Origin: a virus
UHGV virus genome: UHGV-0130975
Reading direction: 5' to 3' (one strand)
Length of the DNA: 35,599 bases
Shown: piece by piece, positions 1-9,297 of the stretch
Numbering within the stretch: position 1 is the first letter of the stretch
Layout: every line of letters begins with the position of its first letter
Program-made: the position numbers and the translations under genes
The notes under the pieces: model-generated
Seen by the model: the letters and a program-made list of their open reading frames with translations, nothing else
Database searches by the model: none
What the model was told of the DNA's origin: nothing

Positions 1-1293
1 AAAGGTGTTTCCTGTAAATATAGTTGAACGGACACCATCAACAACAGCACCGGAAGCTGTCGCATCACGCCCAGATGACACAAAGTTACCAATGATAGAT
101 CCGTACGCAATGCCGTTAAGTAACCATGCGCTACCAGAAACTGCATCAAAAACAGAGTTGGATATAAATACCTGGTATCCAGCAAATTGGTCCAGCGCTG
201 TTGGCGATACCAGAGTAACTTTAGTCTGTACTGCATAATCTCCCGCAAAAAAGGTGCAGAAAGTGATACTAAGGTCTGCTGTATCCCAAACATCTATAGG
301 TGAGTTTGAGCTAAAGCACATCAAAAATTTTGGAGACTCGCTAATGAAATTTACTGTGTTAAGGTCTGATCTGCCTTCAAATCCGCTCGACCAACGTTCA
401 CATCTAAAGAAGTTAACATAGTGATAGTTGTTCATTAAAGTTCTTGAGTTGTAAAAGTACACTCTGTCGAAATCTAAGTTCTGGACATGTCGGCAAACCA
501 TCCAGTTAATTACTGTATCAGATGAAATGATCACATCCCTAAAGATGCCACCCTGTTTCCACTGACTAGCAGCCGGGCCAGACCCTGTAAGGGTAAACAT
601 AGTGAAGGTTGAATCAGAACCTAGATATTTAATCTCTGGATTTTTTGCATTACCTATAATTTCATACCTGGCAGGCAACTCAATATCACGAGTAGCCATG
701 GCATAAACACCAGATCCTCTGAGATAAATTTTCTTAGCACCTGATGCAAACGCCTTCTTAAATGCTAAAGAGTTATCAGTAATACCTCCGTCGTCTTTTC
801 CTCCGAAATCCTCAAGGAACACAAAATCATCAAGCTTATCCTGAACAGTTCTGTATACGGCACCATCAACAACAGATGGTAATCCATACTTATACTTTAC
901 TGTTTCAGGGAATGCCCCGCTTGCAAACTCTCTCTCTAGCTCCTGCCGGAACTGGTCAGGGTCATACTTCAGCACATTAGGAAAATAGAACTGCTGCGCA
1001 CCGTACGTATCATAAACAGCCATCGAATGACCTTGCACAGTTACGAATTTGGCAATCTGTCCGTTATATACTGGGTAACCAGCAGCGTTAATGATGATTG
1101 GTTGCGAAACAGGAACGTGAGAACCGTCTTCGTTCTCTACATAAACCTGAATCTGGTTTTCAGGATTTACCGGGTCAGTGTCAATTTTTCCGATATAAAT
1201 TTTGCCATTGGCAACCGCTTTAAAAGAACGCGCCATAGTGAAGAGTTGCGAAGGCATGCTTACTACAACATTGGCATTTATTGAATCTGTCAT
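1..1293 (-). CDS. Tailspike protein, 5' portion (N-terminal 431 codons; gene continues past the window start)
   Basis: Minus-strand frame opens at ATG 1293-1291 (GGAG about 8 nt upstream) and runs to position 1 with no in-frame stop (checked codon by codon). Translation [60 protein letters not shown]... matches, from memory, the conserved head-binding domain of P22/Sf6/HK620-type tailspikes; sequence after about residue 115 diverges (receptor-binding domain). Missing from the ORF track because no stop lies inside the window. Confidence 0.9.
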
Positions 1294-1425
1294 TTAATTT
1301 GCTCCAGATACAAGGAATCGCCGCAGCATGGCTACGGTTGGTGTTTGTTGCATACCGAAATGGTACGATTGTTGATTTGTACAGTAGGTTTTACGATGCC
1401 ATTCCACCCATTTGGTGAGGCATTG

Positions 1426-1683
1426 ATGATGTACAGCAAATACGATGAGGCGCAGTTCCACTTGAGGCTTACGCACGAGTTGCACGCTAAGATTAAGCAA
1501 CGTGCAAAAATGAATAACAGGTCTATCAATTCCGAAATTGTGGCTACGATGGAAGAATCACTCTCCAAACCATCACCTGTAAGCGGGTATCGTGATGAAG
1601 AAGAGAGGCTGGCCTCATTAATCTCGGAACGAGTAAAAGAAGTTGTGGCTGATATCCTTAGAAAAGAAAAAACCCGCGATTAA
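1426..1683 (+). CDS. mnt: Mnt-like ribbon-helix-helix repressor (85 aa)
   Basis: ATG 1426 with GGTGAGG 7 nt upstream. N-terminal RHH motif (FHLRLTHELHAKIKQRAKMNNRSINSEIV) and C-terminal SKPSPVSGYRDEEERLA segment recalled as P22 Mnt-like. The longer ORF-track start (1345) lacks an RBS. Confidence 0.75.
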   Translation: MMYSKYDEAQFHLRLTHELHAKIKQRAKMNNRSINSEIVATMEESLSKPSPVSGYRDEEERLASLISERVKEVVADILRKEKTRD

Positions 1684-1692
1684 GCGGGTTTA
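1660..1692 (-). terminator. Rho-independent terminator ending the minus-strand antirepressor operon (also a weak terminator for mnt on the plus strand)
   Basis: Hairpin AACCCGC / GCGGGTT (1671-1690) with loop containing the mnt stop codon; on the minus strand it is followed by a U-rich tract (plus-strand A-run 1660-1670). Confidence 0.6.
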
Positions 1693-1697
1693 GTTGG

Positions 1698-1919
1698 TTA
1701 GTTATCAAAAAGTCCGTACGTTTCTTCTTCTTCAGGTGTAAGGGGAAGAATCTCTACTCTATCTATAGATACCTTTTCAATGTACCCATGAGGTCTACTT
1801 AAAATTAAAGCTCTCTCATGCCACAGAACTCCAAGAATGTGATACCTTCCAGCATCGCCTTTTACCCTGGCTCTTCCTTTGATTCTTGGCGGCATAATGC
1901 CATATTTTTTCTTTGCCAT
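1698..1919 (-). CDS. Hypothetical protein (73 aa), last gene of the antirepressor operon
   Basis: ORF-track frame; its ATG overlaps the stop of the upstream antirepressor-like gene (TAATG), suggesting translational coupling. No recognisable motif. Confidence 0.4.
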   Translation of the reverse strand: MAKKKYGIMPPRIKGRARVKGDAGRYHILGVLWHERALILSRPHGYIEKVSIDRVEILPLTPEEEETYGLFDN

Positions 1920-2644
1920 TATGCAACATTACTCCCATGAATCAGGTGTTGTAGTGCTTTAACACCTTCCGCATTGTAGCGGAACGCCTCTACCTGTTTG
2001 CTGGAATGCGCAGATTTATCTAGGAAGAACTTGCCGTACTGCTCAGTTTTGAGGTTGTTTGCGTTAGCAATGCGACCAATCTTGTTGGCCGTTACTCCAA
2101 GCTGCTCTGCAACCTCCCCTGCTGAGTAGTAATGCTCTTCTATTGCTGGAAGAGGTATTGCATTAAAACCAACGATCGGGTTGATTATGCTTGCTGCCGC
2201 AGTCTGCTTTGCCTCAGGCGCAAGATTTGGCATCAGATCGAACAGATTGGTAACAGCTTCAACCGTCATTTTCAATGTTCGCGCTTGACGATACTCAACA
2301 AGTCCACTCGCTGATTTACCGCTTTTAATGTGTGCTTCCTGCATACTTTCAAGTTTGTCTACAAGTGTTCGGCGAACTGCTTTAGATTCGCGAGCAGCAA
2401 CACGAAGCGCCTGCTTGATAGTCATGGAGATAACATCAATGTCAGCCCCGTTTTTCCGACCTACACTTTTTGTGTAGGTCTCGCCCTCCAATTCATCCTC
2501 AATTTTCTCGATGAATTTGTTGTTACGTACTGATGGCTCTCCACATAACTTGCGAGCTTCATTAACCATCATCAGAAGACTTTGGCTGTCAATGGTTTTA
2601 TCCGTGACAACGGATCCGATGTTTGCTACATTCTTAAAAGTCAT
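1919..2644 (-). CDS. Antirepressor-like protein (AntA-type N-terminus, KilA-C/ANT-type C-terminus), about 242 aa
   Basis: Start placed at MTFKNVANIG (ATG 2644-2642) with AAGGA 7 nt upstream. C-terminal segment (AIEEHYYSAGEVAEQLGVTANKIGRIANANNL) resembles the HTH-containing C-terminal domain of phage antirepressors. Family assignment is from memory. Confidence 0.6.
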   Translation of the reverse strand: MTFKNVANIGSVVTDKTIDSQSLLMMVNEARKLCGEPSVRNNKFIEKIEDELEGETYTKSVGRKNGADIDVISMTIKQALRVAARESKAVRRTLVDKLESMQEAHIKSGKSASGLVEYRQARTLKMTVEAVTNLFDLMPNLAPEAKQTAAASIINPIVGFNAIPLPAIEEHYYSAGEVAEQLGVTANKIGRIANANNLKTEQYGKFFLDKSAHSSKQVEAFRYNAEGVKALQHLIHGSNVA

Positions 2645-2732
2645 TAGGCATTCCTTATGTGGTAGTAAGGGTGTGACATAGGCCGCCAGCAGCACACTGG
2701 CGGTTTTCTTTTTGCGCCGTCCGGCGCACCAA

Positions 2733-3359
2733 TCAATGAATCCATTCCTCGCCGCGCAGTTTTGCCAGTATTGGCTGAGCGTTCTTTACGACAAAATTGT
2801 TGGTATCAAGATTCTTCATTTCACGAAGAAGTGATTTCTTGGTTTCTTCTGACATGTAGCGAGTCTCATATGCAATATCGTAAATCCTTCCTGAAAGCTC
2901 AGAACCAATTTGCTTCATTCCTGGGTAGATGTGTTTGCACATTTGTTGACTCTTCTCCATCCACAATTGTAAGTAGCAGAGATTAACCAGTTCTTCGTCA
3001 GTAAACTGTTTTGCAATCGGTGAGCATTCTGCCTGCCGATCCAAAATATCCAGCACCCAGCGGCGGAACTCTTTGGCTACCGGAGTGCGAGCAAACATCG
3101 CGATTAGGTGGGCACCGCGTAGTGAGAAAACTCGCACTTTTTTGCGATAATTTCCTGAGGTACTCACTTCGAGTACCTGAGTCATTCCGGCGCTAAACTC
3201 ATCGCTATACTTGTTATAAATCATTGTTACTGCACGACTATTTGCGTATTTAAGTGCAGATGCAATATTAGATGATGTAAACCAAACACCATGCATATCA
3301 CGGGTGGGCACCAACTCAACTCCGTGGAAGTTGTAATCTGATTTTGCTACAATATTCAT
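2733..3359 (-). CDS. ant: Antirepressor Ant with Bro-N domain (about 208 aa)
   Basis: Start at MNIVAKSDYNFHG (ATG 3359-3357) with AAGGA RBS. N-terminal segment NFHGVELVPTRDMHGVWFTSSNIASALKYAN is a typical Bro-N/AntA motif. Sits directly downstream of arc as in P22 immI. ORF-track start 3443 would overlap arc and lacks an RBS. Confidence 0.7.
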   Translation of the reverse strand: MNIVAKSDYNFHGVELVPTRDMHGVWFTSSNIASALKYANSRAVTMIYNKYSDEFSAGMTQVLEVSTSGNYRKKVRVFSLRGAHLIAMFARTPVAKEFRRWVLDILDRQAECSPIAKQFTDEELVNLCYLQLWMEKSQQMCKHIYPGMKQIGSELSGRIYDIAYETRYMSEETKKSLLREMKNLDTNNFVVKNAQPILAKLRGEEWIH

Positions 3360-3432
3360 GTTAGTTTCCTTGCATACGGTTACTGACATAGAGGCCCAGT
3401 TTGTGTTCGCGCACTGCTGGGCTTCACTATTT

Positions 3433-3606
3433 TTACTGGGCATTAGCTCTTTCCTCTCTCAGGCTTTTAGCCAGTCGCTGCACAATCGCAGAGTTGATAG
3501 AAATTCCATCCATTTCAGCAACACGTCTAATCTCCTCCTTCATTCGCGCTGGCAAACGAAGCTGAAAACTTTGACTTTTACGACCTGTGTAAAGCACATC
3601 TTTCAT
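3433..3606 (-). CDS. arc: Arc-like ribbon-helix-helix repressor (57 aa)
   Basis: Not in the ORF track (under 60 aa). ATG 3606-3604 preceded by a perfect AGGAGG 7 nt upstream. Translation MKDVLYTGRKSQSFQLRLPARMKEEIRRVAEMDGISINSAIVQRLAKSLREERANAQ has the RHH beta-strand/helix pattern (QLRLP...INSAIV) of P22 Arc. Confidence 0.7.
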   Translation of the reverse strand: MKDVLYTGRKSQSFQLRLPARMKEEIRRVAEMDGISINSAIVQRLAKSLREERANAQ

Positions 3607-3618
3607 AAGTAATCCTCC

Positions 3619-3675
3619 TATAATGATACCAACTTGGTTCTAGAACCAATTTAACACCATTTATTTTGATGTCAA
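3619..3675. promoter_or_regulatory. Divergent promoter/operator region between arc-ant (minus) and the 106-aa RHH gene (plus)
   Basis: Perfect 16-bp palindrome TTGGTTCTAGAACCAA at 3634-3649 with a partial repeat AAGTTGGT at 3674-3681. Plus-strand TATAAT at 3619-3624; minus-strand TTGACA (complement of 3670-3675) with a TAAATT/TTAAAT -10 candidate overlapping the palindrome. Confidence 0.55.
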
Positions 3676-3717
3676 GTTGGTGCTATTGTTTAGCGAACAT
3701 CTTTACGTTGAGGTCAT

Positions 3718-4038
3718 ATGAGCAAGTTCCCTAGTCATGAAATGGATAGGTTCAATATCAGGCTTCCTGCAGGAATGCGGGATGCTATAGCTGAACGAGC
3801 CAAACGTAACGGCAGATCAATGAACTCAGAGATTGTTCAGATACTGGAAGATGCCTTGAATGCAGAAAATACACTCGGGGAAATAGCAGATAAAATCAAC
3901 AGCGTCTCGGTTCCGCTAAATGTTGATGCGCTAGTTCAACTTCAAGCCCAGGTTATCGCCATGCAAAAAGAAATACAGGAAAAGTTCAGAGAGCAGAACG
4001 AAAAGTTGAGAGAACTGCTAAACAAAAAACCCACCTGA
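3718..4038 (+). CDS. Ribbon-helix-helix (Arc/Mnt family) repressor with C-terminal coiled coil (106 aa)
   Basis: N-terminal FNIRLPAGMRDAIAERAKRNGRSMNSEIVQILEDAL is a classic Arc/MetJ RHH signature; C-terminus is heptad-like (LVQLQAQVIAMQKEIQEKFREQNEKLRELL). Transcribed divergently from arc-ant, the position P22 mnt occupies. Confidence 0.7.
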   Translation: MSKFPSHEMDRFNIRLPAGMRDAIAERAKRNGRSMNSEIVQILEDALNAENTLGEIADKINSVSVPLNVDALVQLQAQVIAMQKEIQEKFREQNEKLRELLNKKPT

Positions 4039-4063
4039 AGGTGGGTTAATTTTTGCCTTTTTT
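4027..4063 (+). terminator. Rho-independent terminator after the 106-aa RHH gene
   Basis: Hairpin AAAACCCACC-TGAA-GGTGGGTT (4027-4047) followed by AATTTTTGCCTTTTTT. Confidence 0.7.
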
Positions 4064-4136
4064 GGACCATATTGACTACTCATAAAATGAGATCAATATT
4101 TAATCGCCCAATAACGAGTGCATGTTGAGGTATATC

Positions 4137-4316
4137 ATGGCGAAAAAACCAGGTGAAAACACAGGAAAAAACGGCGGAATATACCAAGAAGTTGGCCCGC
4201 GCGGCGGTAAGAAAGACAATTTTGCCACCGTCAAGGACAACGAAAGGCTTCCACCAACAACAAAGCCAGGTCATGGCTGGGTATTAGATAAGCGAACTCC
4301 AGACAGCAAAAAGTAA
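4137..4316 (+). CDS. Small YjzC-like protein (59 aa)
   Basis: ATG 4137 with GAGG 6 nt upstream. MAKKPGENTGKNGGIYQEVGPRGGKKDNFATVKDNERLPPTTKPGHGWVL resembles, from memory, the KPGE...NGG.Y.E.G...G...LPPT...GHxW pattern of the YjzC-like small-protein family. Own terminator immediately downstream. Confidence 0.5.
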   Translation: MAKKPGENTGKNGGIYQEVGPRGGKKDNFATVKDNERLPPTTKPGHGWVLDKRTPDSKK

Positions 4317-4321
4317 TAATC

Positions 4322-4346
4322 AAGCCGGGTCACTCCGGCTTTTTGA
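4322..4346 (+). terminator. Rho-independent terminator after the YjzC-like gene
   Basis: AGCCGG-GTCACT-CCGGCT hairpin followed by TTTTT (4341-4345). Confidence 0.6.
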
Positions 4347-4695
4347 TATGTCGCTCGCAGAACTCAACAAGCCTGCTCATTAAGTAGCAGTAAGTCTCGT
4401 TGGCTCTTCCTGGTTCAACATCAACACCGACCCTTGAGCAGATATCGAATGCCATGTGAGCGCACTCATGGGCAATAGTAGATAGTTTGCCATTGAACAC
4501 GCCTATCACATGCAAAACACCATTCTCGCTGCTCATTGTATGAGACGCTCCGTTGGCATCCGAGTCCTGCACGTCCACACCAAGTTTTTGATGCAGGCGT
4601 TGCCATTCTGGAAAGTCTCTACAAAACACAATTGTACCGCTCTCAAAGAGCGGAACGAGCATTTTTGGTACGTTTCCAATGTTAACTTTTTTCAT
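4330..4695 (-). CDS. HExxH-motif protein (121 aa), possible small zincin-like metallopeptidase-fold protein
   Basis: ORF-track frame. Contains AHECAHMAF, i.e. an HExxH motif in a predicted helix, with a downstream acidic residue (VEPGRANETY) that could serve as a third ligand. Co-directional with the late operon, in the position where P22 carries sieA. Confidence 0.55.
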   Translation of the reverse strand: MKKVNIGNVPKMLVPLFESGTIVFCRDFPEWQRLHQKLGVDVQDSDANGASHTMSSENGVLHVIGVFNGKLSTIAHECAHMAFDICSRVGVDVEPGRANETYCYLMSRLVEFCERHIKKPE

Positions 4696-4725
4696 GGTAT
4701 CCTGCGCAAAACTAAGGAGGTTGGT

Positions 4726-5055
4726 GTGCTTGAATGGTTTCTGTTGGCTGCATTAGTCGTTTCTAGTTTGGTGTATGAGTATCGAATGCACTCTCTAACA
4801 AAAAAAATAGGAATTCTAGAAAACGAATATTGTGCTCTCAAATCCTCACTGGAACGTGAGCAAGGAGACTTAAAAATCTCTCTGTCTAGCATTGAGCGTT
4901 CTATAGAGAGCCTAGAGGATAAGGTTGATCGTATAAAGAATGAGGATATTCATGATATTAAGGACGACATATCCTTCTTAAAATCTTGGTTGAAAAATGT
5001 TGGTAAAATTGCCACATCAACACGAGATAAGCTCAATCCATCCATGGATGACTAA
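4726..5055 (+). CDS. Small membrane-anchored coiled-coil protein (110 aa, GTG start), low-GC moron
   Basis: GTG 4726 preceded by AAGGAGG 5 nt upstream. N-terminal hydrophobic helix (LEWFLLAALVVSSLVY) followed by a heptad-rich charged region (ILENEYCALKSSLEREQGDLKISLSSIERSIESLEDKVDRIKNEDIHDI). The ORF-track upstream extension is noncoding-looking. Visibly AT-richer than the flanking late genes; stop abuts the gp16 stop (convergent). Confidence 0.55.
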   Translation: MLEWFLLAALVVSSLVYEYRMHSLTKKIGILENEYCALKSSLEREQGDLKISLSSIERSIESLEDKVDRIKNEDIHDIKDDISFLKSWLKNVGKIATSTRDKLNPSMDD

Positions 5056-7182
5056 TTACTCCTGTGCCATTCCGCTAAGCGATGCCACAATTCCAGCCCT
5101 TGCTAAACGCTGGAACTCTTCGTTTCCTAGTGCCTCGCGTATTGCTTTTACGGCGGCCTTATTTGCCATAAATCTGCGTTCCGCCGCCGCTAATGCTTCT
5201 TTGCTTCCGCCTGCTCTTACTGCTTTAGTTGCTTCCTGAACTGCTTTCTCTATCGCATACCGACCACTACGTGTGGTGGCAATTTTAGATACAGCGCCTT
5301 TTAACCCAGCGCCAACTAAAGCACCTGCGGCAGCGCCTGCAATGCCTCCTCCAGCGCCACCAACAATGGCACCTGATGTTGAATTGGCAATTGCATTTAA
5401 CACTGTTGATGTGACGTTGGATAAACCAGCATCCAGATCGCGTAGTACATTGGCAGTTCTACCTGTTCTTTCAATATACTGCTGAGGTTTCACTGCTGCT
5501 CTTGCAAGAGTGCCATATGCATCAGCAATTCTTCCAAGCTCTGAGGAATATCGGCTAATGGCTTTTACATTTTGTGGAGTCAGTATCTCTGCGATATGGT
5601 TAATTCCTGCTGCATCAGCTTTGCCACCACGTACACCATGCGAGATAGCATCTTGCAACATTGATGAAATAGCAGGAACACGCTCTGATTCTGGCAGCGC
5701 GCGGATCATAGAATGGAATCCAGCAGGACCATTAAGACCTTTAGCTGACGATGATTGAAGGGATTTTACTCCATTCGTAATCAGTGCATCTGTTGCCAAA
5801 TCACGCCCGAAAACAGACTCTGCACTCTCTTGTGCTGATAACCTCGCTTTAGACAGATCATTAGCTTTCTGCCAGTCATCAAGAAATCCGCCGTTTTCCG
5901 CCATTGTGCGCATATCATCAGTAATTGCCCGGCGTATTTCCCCTGCTCTCCTTGCCGCATTTGCCTCTCCGCTACGCTTATATTTTTGCTCCGCATCAGC
6001 AAATTTCGCTCTCCATGCTTTCATGCCATCAAATGTTACTCCACCTTGATTGTTTGCCTGAACAAACTGTTTCATTTCAGGAGTAAGCGGTATGCCAGCA
6101 GATCGCTCTGCCTGAATAACGGCATTACCATTTAGCATTCTTGCTTTTTGATTTGGCATTGTTGACCGCACGTCATCCCATGCCGCGCGCTCGGCATCCT
6201 TCATCTGATCAAGATTTTGAAGAATCCTTTGTTTTATAGCCGCACTTTTTTCTGATGCCGTTCCAGATGTGGCCCCAAATTCATCAAGGTTTCGACTTAA
6301 CTTTGATGATATTTCGTTAAATGCTGCCTGATGGGCGTCCTGAACAATTCCAGGTGTTGATGCCAATGCGCCTTCGGCTTGTGCAATTCCACGACTTCCA
6401 GATCGCATTCCTGGTGTTAATGCGTTTATATCAATTCCAGCAGACTCAGCCGCTTTTGCTACATCTTCGGACACATTAGCGGCCTGACTGGCAATTGACT
6501 GACGCCCAGCACCTGACTTTGCCATCCTAGAAACATCATTAGCAGAATTCAGTGCTGCACCACCAAGAGCCTGTGAAACCCTTGGCGCAATAACGCGCCC
6601 GACACCTGAAAGAACGCCTTGAGCACCAATATTGATACCACCGTTAATGGCAGCATTTTGTGCAAAATCACCCTCCTGATTTGCAGCATCAGCAAGAGAA
6701 CCTGCAATCATGTTTCCTGCGGAACCGATGTCTCCTGCGAGCTTTGCTGGCGCTCCAGCAACTTTTGCCGCTGTGCCAATTGGCAGGAGATACCCACCAA
6801 TTGTTTCACCGGCTTGCGCCCAAGGGTCTGTCGGTCGATCGACAGGGCGATAAACATCATCCAAAACCTTGGGGCCACCAAGCCCCTGGCTGATTGCATT
6901 AATCAGACTTGCGCCACCCTGCAATACGTCAAATGGTATGTTTACCAGACCACGACCAGCCTGTTCTGCAATTTGCCCTGCACTTTGACCACCAGTGAGC
7001 CAATCGCCAGCTTGTTGCATCAATGATGGTTCTTCCCGTGTTGGTGCATTATTGTCCTGATTAACTGTTTGTTGCTGAACAGCCTGACCAGCAAAATACT
7101 CATCAATGGCGGTGCCAATATCTTCCGTGCTCGTACCATCAGGGAAGGTAAATGTCTTACCGTTTGCAGTTACTTTCATCAT
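5056..7182 (-). CDS. DNA ejection (injection) protein, P22 gp16-like (708 aa)
   Basis: Last gene of the late operon in the P22 order 7-20-16; Gly/Ala-rich with a C-terminal [17 protein letters not shown] hydrophobic segment typical of ejection proteins. Confidence 0.8.
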
Positions 7183-8594
7183 TCCACCGTAAATTGAATG
7201 CCTGATTTTGAGGTATATGATCCAACCTGATTCGGTGTTTCTCCTGAAGGTGTCGAATCTTGCGCTGGTGCTGCGTCAGTATTCATTGACATATACCGCT
7301 TAACGGCACTCCCCAATGATTCACCTTTTTTAACATCCAACCCCAATATCTGACCGCCATTACGCGATTGTCCAGGGTTGCCATTCGCGCTCATCCACTC
7401 GGCTTTAAACTCATTAAACTGCGCGTTTCGTCGCTCAAGGTTTGCCATTGCATCAAGCCATCTTGCGACCGTCTCAGGGTTATCCATGTCAGTTGGCGCA
7501 CCCTGTCGAACGATCTCAACGTCTTTATCCGTTGCTGGGCCGGGAGGTAGGAATTTAAGAACCTGACTGTTAACAAGGGCATTTTGGCGAATGCGCAAAT
7601 CACGCAATGTTGTATCGCTTCCGGTAAGTTTTGCGAACATGTTCTGTGCGTTACCGAACAAACCTGTCGTTGGTTTTTCTGCTCTGAACTGTTGAGCAAG
7701 CGCACTCATAGAATTGGCTGAGTTTGATGATGCTGTAGCATTGTTTACAGCCGTCTCGATGCCTTTTTCCATGTTTACTGACAGCTTAGGTGCTTCGCTA
7801 ATCAACTGCTGAGCCTTTTCCTGCGCTTGCTGCATCTTAAACCCGAACTCTTGCTGATCCAGAGCCAAGCGTTGTGCTGCGATATTGTGCCCAGTCATTG
7901 CTGACTGATAGGAAAGGTTTTGCCCTCTCGCCTGAAGTGCTTCACCAGCCTGATTGCTGCGGATTGTCTCTGCAAGTTTTCCGCGATCAATCTCACGACC
8001 AGCCATCTTGTCCTGAACAGCAAACGCCTTTTCTGGTCCAAGCGCACCGAGAGACATAGTAGTCAGCATGTGTGATAGCTGCTCTGGATTCTGGATACCT
8101 GTCTGAATCATCCAGTCAGCATTAACACCAACGCGATTTAACCTGTCCTTGTTGTCAGTAATGAATTTACTGTAGGCTTCCGGTCCCTGAGAAAGAGCGA
8201 CGTTAGCCCTCATGGCTAAATCGCCCATATCGTTGCGTTGCTGCTCATTAAGACCGGAAAACGCCTGTTGTGCCTGCGCAACAAACGCTGGATTTTCCTT
8301 GGCAAACTTAAATAGTCCCGATGGATCACCAGAAGCCCATGCATCAGCATGAACCTTATTGAACGCATTAATCGCTTTCTGTTGCTGTTCCTGCTTATAA
8401 ATATCAGCAACTCCAGCCAGACCACGTAACGCGGTCAGACCAACGTTATTTGCACCTGAGCGAGCCAGTTCATTGTTTTCGCGGATCAGACCAAGCGTTG
8501 CGTTAATGTCGCTTGCCTTTGGCGCATTCTCATTTTGCGTACCGATGCCAGCCAGAAAACCACCAGAATTAATACCCTGTTGCCACGTAGCCAT
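7179..8594 (-). CDS. DNA ejection protein, P22 gp20-like (471 aa)
   Basis: Position between gp7-like and gp16-like genes; 471 aa, the length recalled for P22 gp20; start overlaps upstream gene. Confidence 0.8.
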
Positions 8595-8604
8595 TGATTA
8601 CCCC

Positions 8605-9297
8605 TTAAAACAACGAGCCAAGCAGACCAAGACCAGCACCGATACCAGCACCCCACGGAGTTGATAGCTCGAGAGCACTGGCTATGCCACCACCCAAAAG
8701 CGCACCGGATGCAGCACCACTAACCCCCTGCTGCAATGCTGACGGTCGGTTGGCGTTTGCCGCAGCCAGCGCCGCGCTTTGCTGTGAAATCTGACTCATG
8801 TTGTTGGCATATGTTTGCCCGGCGTTTGCCTGCCCCTGAAGAGCGCCAAGACCGATATTTGCCAGGTTGTTGTAATTGTTCATTTGTCCAGATAGCCATT
8901 GCTGACCAAGCGTTGGTGCGATTGTTGCTAACTGATTACTGGTTGCAGTGGAACCCAATCCACCTGTTGCTTCCGCTGCCGCCAGACTCTGATAGCGAGC
9001 CTGACCTGCAAGGTCTTTGTACTGCTGAGAGTTGTAATACTGGTTAAGTGCCTGACCTTGCCCCTCCAGAGACGATAAGTTCTCGAGGCTGCCGACATAC
9101 TTCTCAGCCAGAGGAGTAAACGGCTTCAGGTTGTTCATGATGGTGTTGAACTGCTGATTTTGCAGGTCTGCGGCATACTTCTGAGCTTCTGCTGCATACT
9201 TTGCGCTTTTATCAGAGCTACCACCTTTCCCGCCTTTTTCAGGGCACCAAGGTTCCTCGCCGCGCAGTTTTCTGCCCAGCTTAAATGCATATAACAT
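8605..9297 (-). CDS. DNA ejection protein, P22 gp7-like (230 aa)
   Basis: Gene order and size (P22 gp7 is about 229 aa); N-terminal region LKPFTPLAEKYVGSLE and a Gln/Ala/Gly-rich C-terminus ending in a hydrophobic Gly-rich segment. Confidence 0.75.
   Translation of the reverse strand: MLYAFKLGRKLRGEEPWCPEKGGKGGSSDKSAKYAAEAQKYAADLQNQQFNTIMNNLKPFTPLAEKYVGSLENLSSLEGQGQALNQYYNSQQYKDLAGQARYQSLAAAEATGGLGSTATSNQLATIAPTLGQQWLSGQMNNYNNLANIGLGALQGQANAGQTYANNMSQISQQSAALAAANANRPSALQQGVSGAASGALLGGGIASALELSTPWGAGIGAGLGLLGSLF

Follow-up and report, generated by a model that had tools for sequence, protein, structure and literature searches.

The viral genome UHGV-0130975 raises the question of whether three small genes beside its gene 16 homologue form a new exclusion or defence cassette that replaces the gene sieA of phage P22. 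The window analysed here is the 35,599-nucleotide (nt) stretch of this genome, and all coordinates refer to the full stretch. A preliminary description had proposed such a cassette. The three open reading frames (ORFs) were verified where it had placed them, as were the GTG start of hkcB and the HExxH motif (HECAH) of hkcC:

4137-4316, + strand: gene A, orf59a (HkcD), 59 amino acids (aa)
4330-4695, - strand: gene B, hkcC, 121 aa, HECAH at residues 76-80
4726-5055, + strand: gene C, hkcB, GTG start, 109 aa

Alignment with related phages places the region in a P22-like Escherichia coli prophage, where it makes up the part nearest gene 16 of the hypervariable and already known 'ant moron' (immI accessory region). 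By the same comparison, its three genes are already named, of unknown function and independently assorting, and do not constitute a new three-gene system. As first posed, the finding is an ordinary one, since the genes are named and the moron region was described between 2001 and 2008. The most useful outcome is a comparison of the sieA slot, which yielded a defined list of candidates: one joint and 12 unrelated, mostly envelope-targeted proteins. Taken as a whole, the locus is best explained as the known ant moron region, with hkcC probably coding for a peptidase made late and hkcB for an exclusion-type envelope protein. We hold this reading with moderate confidence.

Gene identity and the sieA slot

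Positions 4022-5268 of the window are 95.6% identical to coliphage HK620 and positions 4022-4728 are 97.9% identical to phage P22, in both cases with the same gene order and orientation. The trio is annotated in HK620 as HkcD (misc_feature), hkcC and hkcB. The P22 counterpart of 4022-4728 comprises the end of mnt, orf59a, an intact hkcC ORF, the putative sieA promoter (PsieA), the ribosome-binding site (RBS) and the GTG start of sieA, and orf59a and hkcC coexist with sieA in this phage. The hkcC ORF of P22 (121/125 aa) is unannotated in BK000583 and called hkcC in other records. On the amino acid level, the hkcC product of the window is 100% identical to that of HK620 and to the 121 aa read from the ATG of the unannotated P22 ORF.

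The trio lies between the homologues of gene 16 and gene 9 (tailspike), beside the Arc, Mnt and Ant genes. The region between genes 16 and 9 was described as the hypervariable 'ant moron', and hkcC, 59a and hkcB were listed among its function-unknown genes (Villafane, Casjens and colleagues 2008; PMC2629481). The preliminary description was thus right to see in the stretch from gene 16 to immI an accessory region of moron type, and the comparison of the locus across relatives confirmed that gene content varies among otherwise syntenic phages. The cassette is not new but equals hkcB/hkcC/HkcD of HK620, and hkcC and 59a are ant moron genes of P22. No functional study was found in the full-text literature on hkcB, hkcC, orf59a or the 'ant moron'.

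Matches to PHROG families were obtained for orf59a (phrog_3202, expectation value (E) 7e-31), hkcC (E 1e-39) and hkcB (E 5e-61), all of them families of unknown function. The strength of these matches, the number of hkcC homologues and the ratio of nonsynonymous to synonymous substitution rates (dN/dS) of hkcB indicate that all three ORFs are real genes. As expected from the preliminary description, none of the three is a virion or lysis gene. A search of PADLOC-DB v2 gave no match for orf59a or hkcC and none that was meaningful for hkcB. Pfam and NCBIfam yielded nothing meaningful for the three proteins apart from a sub-threshold match of orf59a to YjzC, so that the earlier failure to assign the genes to any described defence system was borne out by profile searches.

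The position relative to sieA is defined by the following features:

4665-4695, + strand: equivalent of the putative sieA promoter, inside the 5' coding end of hkcC, transferred from BK000583 via an ungapped alignment
4696-4728, + strand: 33-nt joint GGTATCCTGCNCAAAACTAAGGAGGTTGGTGTG, ending in GTG
5056-7182, - strand: gene 16 homologue, ejection (DNA transfer) protein, 708 aa

The joint contains an extended -10-like sequence TGGTATCCT (4695-4703), the Shine-Dalgarno (SD) sequence AAGGAGG (4714-4720) and the GTG (4726-4728). Homology to P22 breaks off after 4728, where the GTG ends; over the 86 nt that precede the GTG, window and P22 differ at 2 positions. AAGGAGG and GTG used by hkcB are the same as those of sieA. 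Judged from this alignment, hkcB alone occupies the sieA slot, and the swap begins right after the common GTG. The 'sieA position' of the preliminary description is accurate for hkcB and does not apply to orf59a and hkcC, which adjoin sieA in P22. In P22, sieA together with 85 bp of upstream DNA is enough for the exclusion phenotype (PMC10883804). Since nearly the same 85-86 nt (2 differences) precede hkcB, it is a reasonable inference that hkcB is expressed likewise. The sequence TCAT(G/C)TGGTATCCTGCNCAAAACTAAGGAGGTTGGTGTG is kept upstream of hkcB in epsilon34, SEN22 and 611R6 and has one change in CUS-3, while the DNA further upstream differs.

A scan of IMG/VR with the 33-nt core yielded at least 119 loci (L012-L130). 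On at least 117 viral contigs, the joint was found to precede at least 12 unrelated small ORF families. Among the loci listed, the largest are hkcB (28 loci) and a 129-aa secreted protein (25 loci), followed by two two-helix proteins of 62 aa (11) and 75 aa (9), a second 109-aa helix-plus-coiled-coil protein (9), SieA (8), a soluble protein of 140 aa (6), two families with 5 loci each (a one-helix protein of 149 aa and a four-helix protein of 116 aa) and three smaller groups. Of these 12 families, 11 showed a membrane or signal segment in a hydropathy scan; a function has been assigned to SieA alone. Comparison of hkcB with the other 11 families by hhalign revealed no detectable relation, the best result being the coiled coil of family 4 with a probability of 26%. 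The loci display 13 distinct upstream contexts, with conservation starting approximately 38 nt before the GTG. Gene 16 follows the slot gene in convergent orientation at a distance of 0-63 nt in all but one locus with a readable neighbour.

At least 124 of 5426 complete E. coli genomes also carry the joint. Neither the joint nor a shorter degenerate version of it had a match in species-representative genomes (0 in both cases), and by these counts it is confined to strain-level prophages. RNA folding of the joint gave no unusual structure (z = 0.35). Taken together, the joint behaves like a plug-in expression socket, as far as can be read from the sequences on its two sides. The start codon of sieA has been called uncertain, with a protein length of 162 or 164 aa (PMC10883804). 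All 12 slot families diverge right after the GTG and in frame, which supports the GTG (P22 locus L001, 3206-3208) as the true sieA start and a SieA of 164 aa. Each slot candidate is linked to a type of gp16 C-terminus, with hkcB among the two commonest, and all of them are open to the published SieA assay.

The site between mnt and the slot gene is, on the same alignments, a second variable position. The gene upstream of hkcB differs among epsilon34, CUS-3, 611R6 and SEN22, and the site was found to hold the following genes in place of those of the window:

epsilon34 (locus L003, 1921-2340): 139-aa lipoprotein gp15, also present in an E. coli prophage
SEN22 (locus L006, 1460-2314): HicA/HicB-like pair
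611R6 (locus L005, 1876-2844): 322-aa protein
CUS-3 (locus L004, 1433-2436): two unrelated genes of unknown function
E. coli EC21Z-014 (locus L008, 2464-3440): signal-peptide protein

These data bear directly on the idea that the three genes are one co-functional exclusion or defence cassette replacing sieA. In its favour, the genes are adjacent, small and non-structural and lie within a hypervariable region, and the intact trio recurs: HK620 has it, as do 32 of 5426 E. coli genomes (parts of the trio occur in 275). However, orf59a and hkcC stand beside sieA in P22 at 98% identity. In 32 of the 105 slot loci with enough upstream sequence, hkcC is found ahead of the slot gene; these cover 10 of the 12 families, and in 7 of the 12 orf59a accompanies it. 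Conversely, orf59a and hkcC are present in only 4 of 26 hkcB loci with enough upstream sequence and are absent from the other 22. Because orf59a and hkcC combine freely with other slot genes and most hkcB loci lack them, the trio is not a module, contrary to what had been proposed. The three genes moreover show three orientations or transcription units, the hkcC family is found in virulent phages too, and the PADLOC search was negative. A joint function of the three genes is therefore highly improbable, and an exclusion or defence role is plausible, by analogy with SieA, for hkcB alone.

HkcB as a candidate envelope protein

The hkcB family is small and confined to enterobacterial phages and prophages of P22-like type. 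The protein of the window is 97% identical to that of HK620 and approximately 55% identical to those of epsilon34, CUS-3 and SEN22. Residues 1-17/18 of the N-terminus are hydrophobic, with hydrophobicity beginning at residue 2-4; the sequence of this part varies and its character is conserved. By a hydropathy scan, hkcB has a single such segment, compared with four for SieA. Hardly any variation is seen across the C-terminal 45 residues (4918-5052), DRIKNEDIHDIKDDISFLKSWLKNVGKIATSTRDKLNPSMDD. AlphaFold2 predicted a single continuous helix spanning residues 2-103 with a heptad pattern (predicted local distance difference test (pLDDT) 87, predicted template modelling score (pTM) 0.40). Between HK620-type and epsilon34-type hkcB, dN/dS amounts to 0.27 for the whole gene, 0.11 over codons 56-109 and 0.09 over the final 25 codons; synonymous change is saturated. 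The low C-terminal values despite this saturation argue for selection on the protein and not merely recent exchange of DNA. Judged by these ratios, hkcB is under purifying selection.

Two metagenome proteins (P0054 and P0055) are chimeric: an unrelated, non-membrane N-terminal stretch of 60 residues precedes the conserved C-terminal 45 of HkcB, which indicates that the C-terminal module can recombine as a unit.

Several candidate assignments of hkcB were rejected. A PADLOC match to DpdH (E 4.5e-4, 18.4 bits) is most likely compositional, as it spans the membrane helix and coiled coil only, and coiled-coil matches in Pfam and NCBIfam (BicD, FlaC, XhlA, Rad50 and others) are far below the cut-offs. 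An Rz-type i-spanin has a similar architecture, but the match to the Rz-like PHROG had an E of only 0.077, and hkcB lies outside the lysis region on the strand opposite to the late operon, with no embedded or adjacent lipoprotein gene. A relationship to SieA was not detected either: hhalign gave a probability of 0.9%, blastp returned a 7-residue match only, and the two proteins belong to different PHROGs (phrog_5962 and phrog_7745).

The neighbouring gp16 of the window is 98% identical to gp13 of epsilon34, 92% to gp16 of CUS-3, 71% to gp16 of HK620 and 34% to gp16 of P22. All hkcB loci with a readable neighbour (23 of 23) have abutting stop codons (spacing 0) and a gp16 C-terminus of the HK620/CUS-3/epsilon34 type (type 1), and all SieA slot loci (8 of 8) have a P22-type gp16. 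SieA acts via the C-terminal regions of gp16 and gp20, and the ejection proteins of HK620 partly escape it (Leavitt et al. 2024; PMC10883804). Inside the hkcB of the window, a mosaic junction was located at approximately 4891, the 5' part being of HK620 type and the 3' part of CUS-3/epsilon34 type. From there to 7035, the 3' half of hkcB and gene 16 are continuously 96% identical to CUS-3. The likeness of this mosaic to both CUS-3 and the Salmonella phage epsilon34 points to exchange between phages of E. coli and Salmonella.

In a global alignment, the annotated gp16 of HK620 (locus L002, 3535-5703) and that of CUS-3 (locus L004, 2783-4942) were found to be 77.6% identical, with 69% in the C-terminal 120 residues. 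The same pair has been given as only 26% identical, a value used to place the SieA escape of HK620 in gp16 (PMC10883804).

An exclusion-type function is the best single guess for hkcB, because the gene stands behind the same joint as sieA and adjoins the end of gene 16 to which SieA escape mutations map. By analogy, it is plausible that HkcB is an exclusion-type envelope protein; exclusion proper is given a chance of roughly one in three, and the wider designation 'prophage-expressed envelope protein' a higher one. HkcB would be expressed from the prophage via the joint and the putative PsieA region that serve sieA in P22, and would insert in the inner membrane through its N-terminal helix. 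Its coiled-coil stalk of approximately 85 residues and the conserved C-terminal 45 residues may then act at the membrane, like SieA, and interfere with the gp16/gp20 conduit through which incoming P22-like phages deliver their DNA, if their gp16 is of the HK620/CUS-3/epsilon34 type.

A number of observations weigh against this proposal. The net charges of the regions flanking the hydrophobic segment are 0 before and +1 after it, with 0 and 3 lysine or arginine residues, respectively; this count favours a cytoplasmic stalk and fits a model of a periplasmic conduit less well. The gene is dispensable, as some prophages with the same gene 16 have lost it or carry a lipoprotein instead. One such E. 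coli prophage retains a 35-nt 3' remnant of hkcB only, which indicates loss by deletion (locus L008, 3441-3540), and another carries a 161-aa lipoprotein with an ATG start behind the diverged joint TCATGATATCCTGTGAAAAACTAAGGAG (locus L007, 2940-3483). Slot gene and gp16 type are linked in every slot family, so that physical adjacency may suffice to explain the linkage. The annotation of PsieA is itself putative, and the -10-like TGGTATCCT is a reading of conserved letters in a region where a consensus promoter scan found sites no more numerous than in shuffled sequence. Defence support for the three genes came from none of PADLOC, Pfam and NCBIfam.

Some of these points agree with a prophage-expressed envelope protein whose role is other than a block of DNA entry, such as abortive infection or depolarisation of the membrane upon infection, modulation of a host envelope or division protein, or control of the phage's own gp16 or of lysis. 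The N-terminal helix beginning at residue 2, the coiled coil and the positive charges after the helix fit a membrane-tethered stalk in the cytoplasm. The slot occupants are highly diverse, and there are weak, non-significant similarities of hkcB to XhlA, Rz-like and DivIC-type coiled coils. However, the sole characterised occupant of this very slot blocks injection, and hkcB shows tight linkage to the end of gene 16 in which SieA escape mutations lie, stands outside the lysis cassette and lacks an o-spanin partner. We regard such a role as possible, yet rather doubtful, and prefer the exclusion-type function.

The preferred reading can be extended to the slot as a whole. [quoted passage not shown] We put this forward tentatively, as a conjecture with the odds against it. 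If it is true, each of the 10 remaining uncharacterised families in the slot would represent a further new exclusion protein, and HkcB would work via the 45 conserved residues at its C-terminus. Among systems that block DNA injection by short-tailed phages, SieA alone has been studied, and its authors could not explain how it keeps pace with very diverse gp16 and gp20 proteins.

HkcC and Orf59a

An exhaustive profile search (E <= 1e-3) yielded 573 representative homologues of hkcC; of the 150 listed, nearly all stand alone, with lengths of 110-140 aa. Among 62 homologues with 23-44% identity to the query, only G49, H76, E77, H80 and E100 are invariant, and close relatives share an invariant cysteine inside the motif (HECxH). 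The AlphaFold2 model (pLDDT 86, pTM 0.81) features strands at residues 11-13 and 21-25, a helix at 28-37, strands at 49-56 and 59-66 (hairpin 49-66), the HExxH helix at 71-89 and a helix at 100-116 that begins with E100. This order of elements is that of the zincin core, in which a sheet with a preceding helix is followed by the HExxH helix and a glutamate-bearing helix. Such a zincin-like metallopeptidase (MPTase) core was defined for polyvalent proteins by Iyer et al. (2017; PMC5512222).

A fold search of BFVD with the model gave 26 matches below E 1e-3, all of them small proteins of temperate and virulent phages. A few are named SprT-like or metallopeptidase and one is named PolyVal metallopeptidase. 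No significant match was found when hkcC was compared with curated families and solved structures. The best match to a sequence in the Protein Data Bank (PDB), the MPTase region of N4-like virion RNA polymerases, was weak (E 0.5-0.8). Matches to lantibiotics (Pfam E 0.14, NCBIfam E 0.025) were dismissed as noise around the HEC...C residues. Based on the model, hkcC looks like a minimal HExxH...E zincin-like protein, in agreement with the comparison to zincin folds that the preliminary description had suggested. It counts against this assignment that only 2 of the 62 family members touch the Pfam SprT-like family (PF10263), with an E of 1e-4.

Paralogues with 38-40% identity occur elsewhere in P22-like genomes, namely gp70 of epsilon34 between the lysis genes and dec, and Orf129 of phages L and ST64T. 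A second hkcC paralogue was not found in the window. Other homologues follow the lysis genes in mEp lambdoid phages (mEp044) or belong to virulent N4-like phages. The orientation with the late operon, together with homologues in late operons and virulent phages, suggests an accessory peptidase of the lytic cycle and argues against an anti-repressor of the ImmA type. The same direction of transcription and the occurrence of the family in virulent phages make hkcC unlikely as a prophage defence gene. Late transcripts must cross the region before they reach the tailspike gene. HkcC would then be a product of lytic growth, namely a cytoplasmic metallopeptidase whose target is a protein of the host or the phage.

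Two more specific functions were considered. As an ImmA/IrrE-like anti-repressor protease, HkcC would cleave Mnt, Arc or C2 within the immI circuitry. This would suit an HExxH protein that adjoins Arc-family repressor genes and an antirepressor, and faint BFVD matches to models named IrrE (E 0.04-0.05) point the same way. However, no match to Peptidase_M78 (ImmA/IrrE) was found in hkcC or in the 62 family members, paralogues and homologues occur at a distance from repressors, in late operons, as well as in virulent phages, which lack lysogeny, and HK620 retains hkcC while its mnt and ant are remnants. We consider an anti-repressor very unlikely. Somewhat better placed, though still unlikely, is a peptidase for counter-defence or processing, of the same kind as the MPTase of polyvalent proteins, which would be made late, possibly be packaged or act early in the next infection, and have host defence proteins or phage ejection proteins as candidate targets. 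It would agree with the position of hkcC just after the ejection-protein genes in the late direction, with core elements that are the same as those of the published MPTase (PMC5512222), with the MPTase region as best, albeit weak, PDB match and with the BFVD match named PolyVal metallopeptidase. The sequence matches, however, fall short of significance, and fusion architectures were absent from a family whose listed members nearly all stand alone. To our knowledge, the very well studied virion of P22 contains no 14-kDa HkcC, which also counts against this function. The lytic-cycle accessory peptidase is hence retained as the preferred reading of hkcC.

The product of orf59a is basic, glycine-rich and YjzC-like, with 98.3% aa identity to that of P22 orf59a, and its gene is transcribed against the late operon. 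The Pfam family YjzC (PF14168) aligned over 46 of 55 profile positions with 19.4 bits (gathering threshold 25). A tblastn search detected a 'YjzC family protein' of a Clostridium phage (E 4e-4); distant relatives occur in phages of Brochothrix, Clostridium and Streptococcus.

Surroundings of the locus and comparison with known systems

The three genes are flanked by the late operon on one side and by immI on the other:

7179-8594, - strand: gp20, late operon
8605-9297, - strand: gp7, late operon
4322-4341: hairpin between the convergent genes A and B, T-run on the + strand only, overlapping the hkcC stop codon
4028-4047: hairpin rich in G+C, flanked by a T-run on each strand, at the 3' end of the mnt-like gene (terminator scan of both strands)
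3718-4038, + strand: Arc-family mnt-like gene
3433-3606, - strand: arc-like (Arc-family) gene
2733-3443, - strand: Ant antirepressor, Bro-N and P22_AR_C
1-1338, - strand: 5' part of the tailspike gene, running off the left end of the window

The equivalent of the hairpin at 4028-4047 is named tMNT in the HK620 record, and the block of homology to P22 and HK620 begins here, at 4022. The hairpin at 4322-4341 corresponds to 'tORF59A' of HK620 and to the 'mnt terminator' of P22. The stop codon of hkcB (5053-5055) directly adjoins that of gene 16 (5056-5058) in convergent orientation with no spacer, and hkcB lacks a terminator. Instead of two genes with their own terminators, as had been described, a single hairpin is thus common to orf59a and hkcC. 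The genes are in three transcriptional settings: orf59a follows mnt on the strand opposite to the late operon, and hkcC runs the same way as the late operon, to which hkcB is antisense. An RBS of its own for each gene was confirmed by SD-like sequences, namely GAGG before orf59a, AGGA before hkcC and AAGGAGG 5 nt before the GTG of hkcB.

The starts of hkcC and hkcB are 30 nt apart, as reported previously. This distance is too short for the two divergent promoters inferred from it; the putative PsieA lies inside the 5' end of hkcC and the promoter scan was at chance level. A promoter-like site inside hkcB (4841-4813, - strand; TTGAGA, 17 nt, TAGAAT; 10 of 12 matches) faces hkcC, again in a scan that was at chance overall. 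Its DNA is absent from P22, where sieA stands instead. The G+C content of hkcB is 0.373, within the lowest 0.9% of 330-nt windows of the sequence, in line with the earlier remark that this gene is AT-richer than its surroundings. The description of all three genes as low in G+C did not hold: orf59a (0.472) and hkcC (0.464) are average for the window (0.478), and the entire three-gene region (0.429) is at the 8th percentile only.

Accessory genes between antirepressor and tailspike (1345-2695) include a second Arc-family gene (1345-1683, + strand) with a weak HicB-like signature. A 73-aa ORF (1698-1919, - strand) and a 258-aa ORF (1919-2695, - strand) had no match in Pfam. An Rfam search of window positions 1-9000 gave nothing at E <= 0.1, and no sar-like RNA was detected.

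Among known systems, hkcB/hkcC/HkcD of HK620, orf59a and hkcC of P22, gene 14 of epsilon34 and hkcB of CUS-3 are the same genes as those of the window. immI is complete in the window, whereas HK620 retains only remnants of mnt and ant. Orf59a resembles the YjzC family (PF14168), which is without known function, in aligning over most of the profile and differs in a score under the threshold. HkcC resembles the MPTase and SprT-like (PF10263) proteins in its sheet and helix, the HExxH helix and the helix with an invariant glutamate; it differs in being a stand-alone protein of 121 aa and, together with close relatives, in the invariant cysteine in the motif.

HK97 gp15, encoded by a moron, lactococcal Sie2009 and T4 Imm are small, moron-encoded inner-membrane proteins that block genome entry of related phages. 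A small, prophage-expressed, single-pass protein is the general design that HkcB, as predicted, has in common with them. No homology of hkcB to such exclusion proteins was detected in PHROGs or Pfam, and we know of no long coiled-coil stalk with a conserved C-terminal module, as in HkcB, in HK97 gp15, Sie2009 or T4 Imm.

The closest comparison is with SieA of P22. SieA has 164 aa, three to four helices and the motif FxRYPxEAxxFNK, whereas HkcB has 109 aa and one helix, lacks the motif and is linked to another type of gp16. Both genes occupy the same slot in convergent orientation with gene 16, behind the same RBS and GTG and 85 nt of upstream DNA with 2 differences, and HkcB, like SieA, is predicted to be membrane-anchored and is encoded in a prophage.

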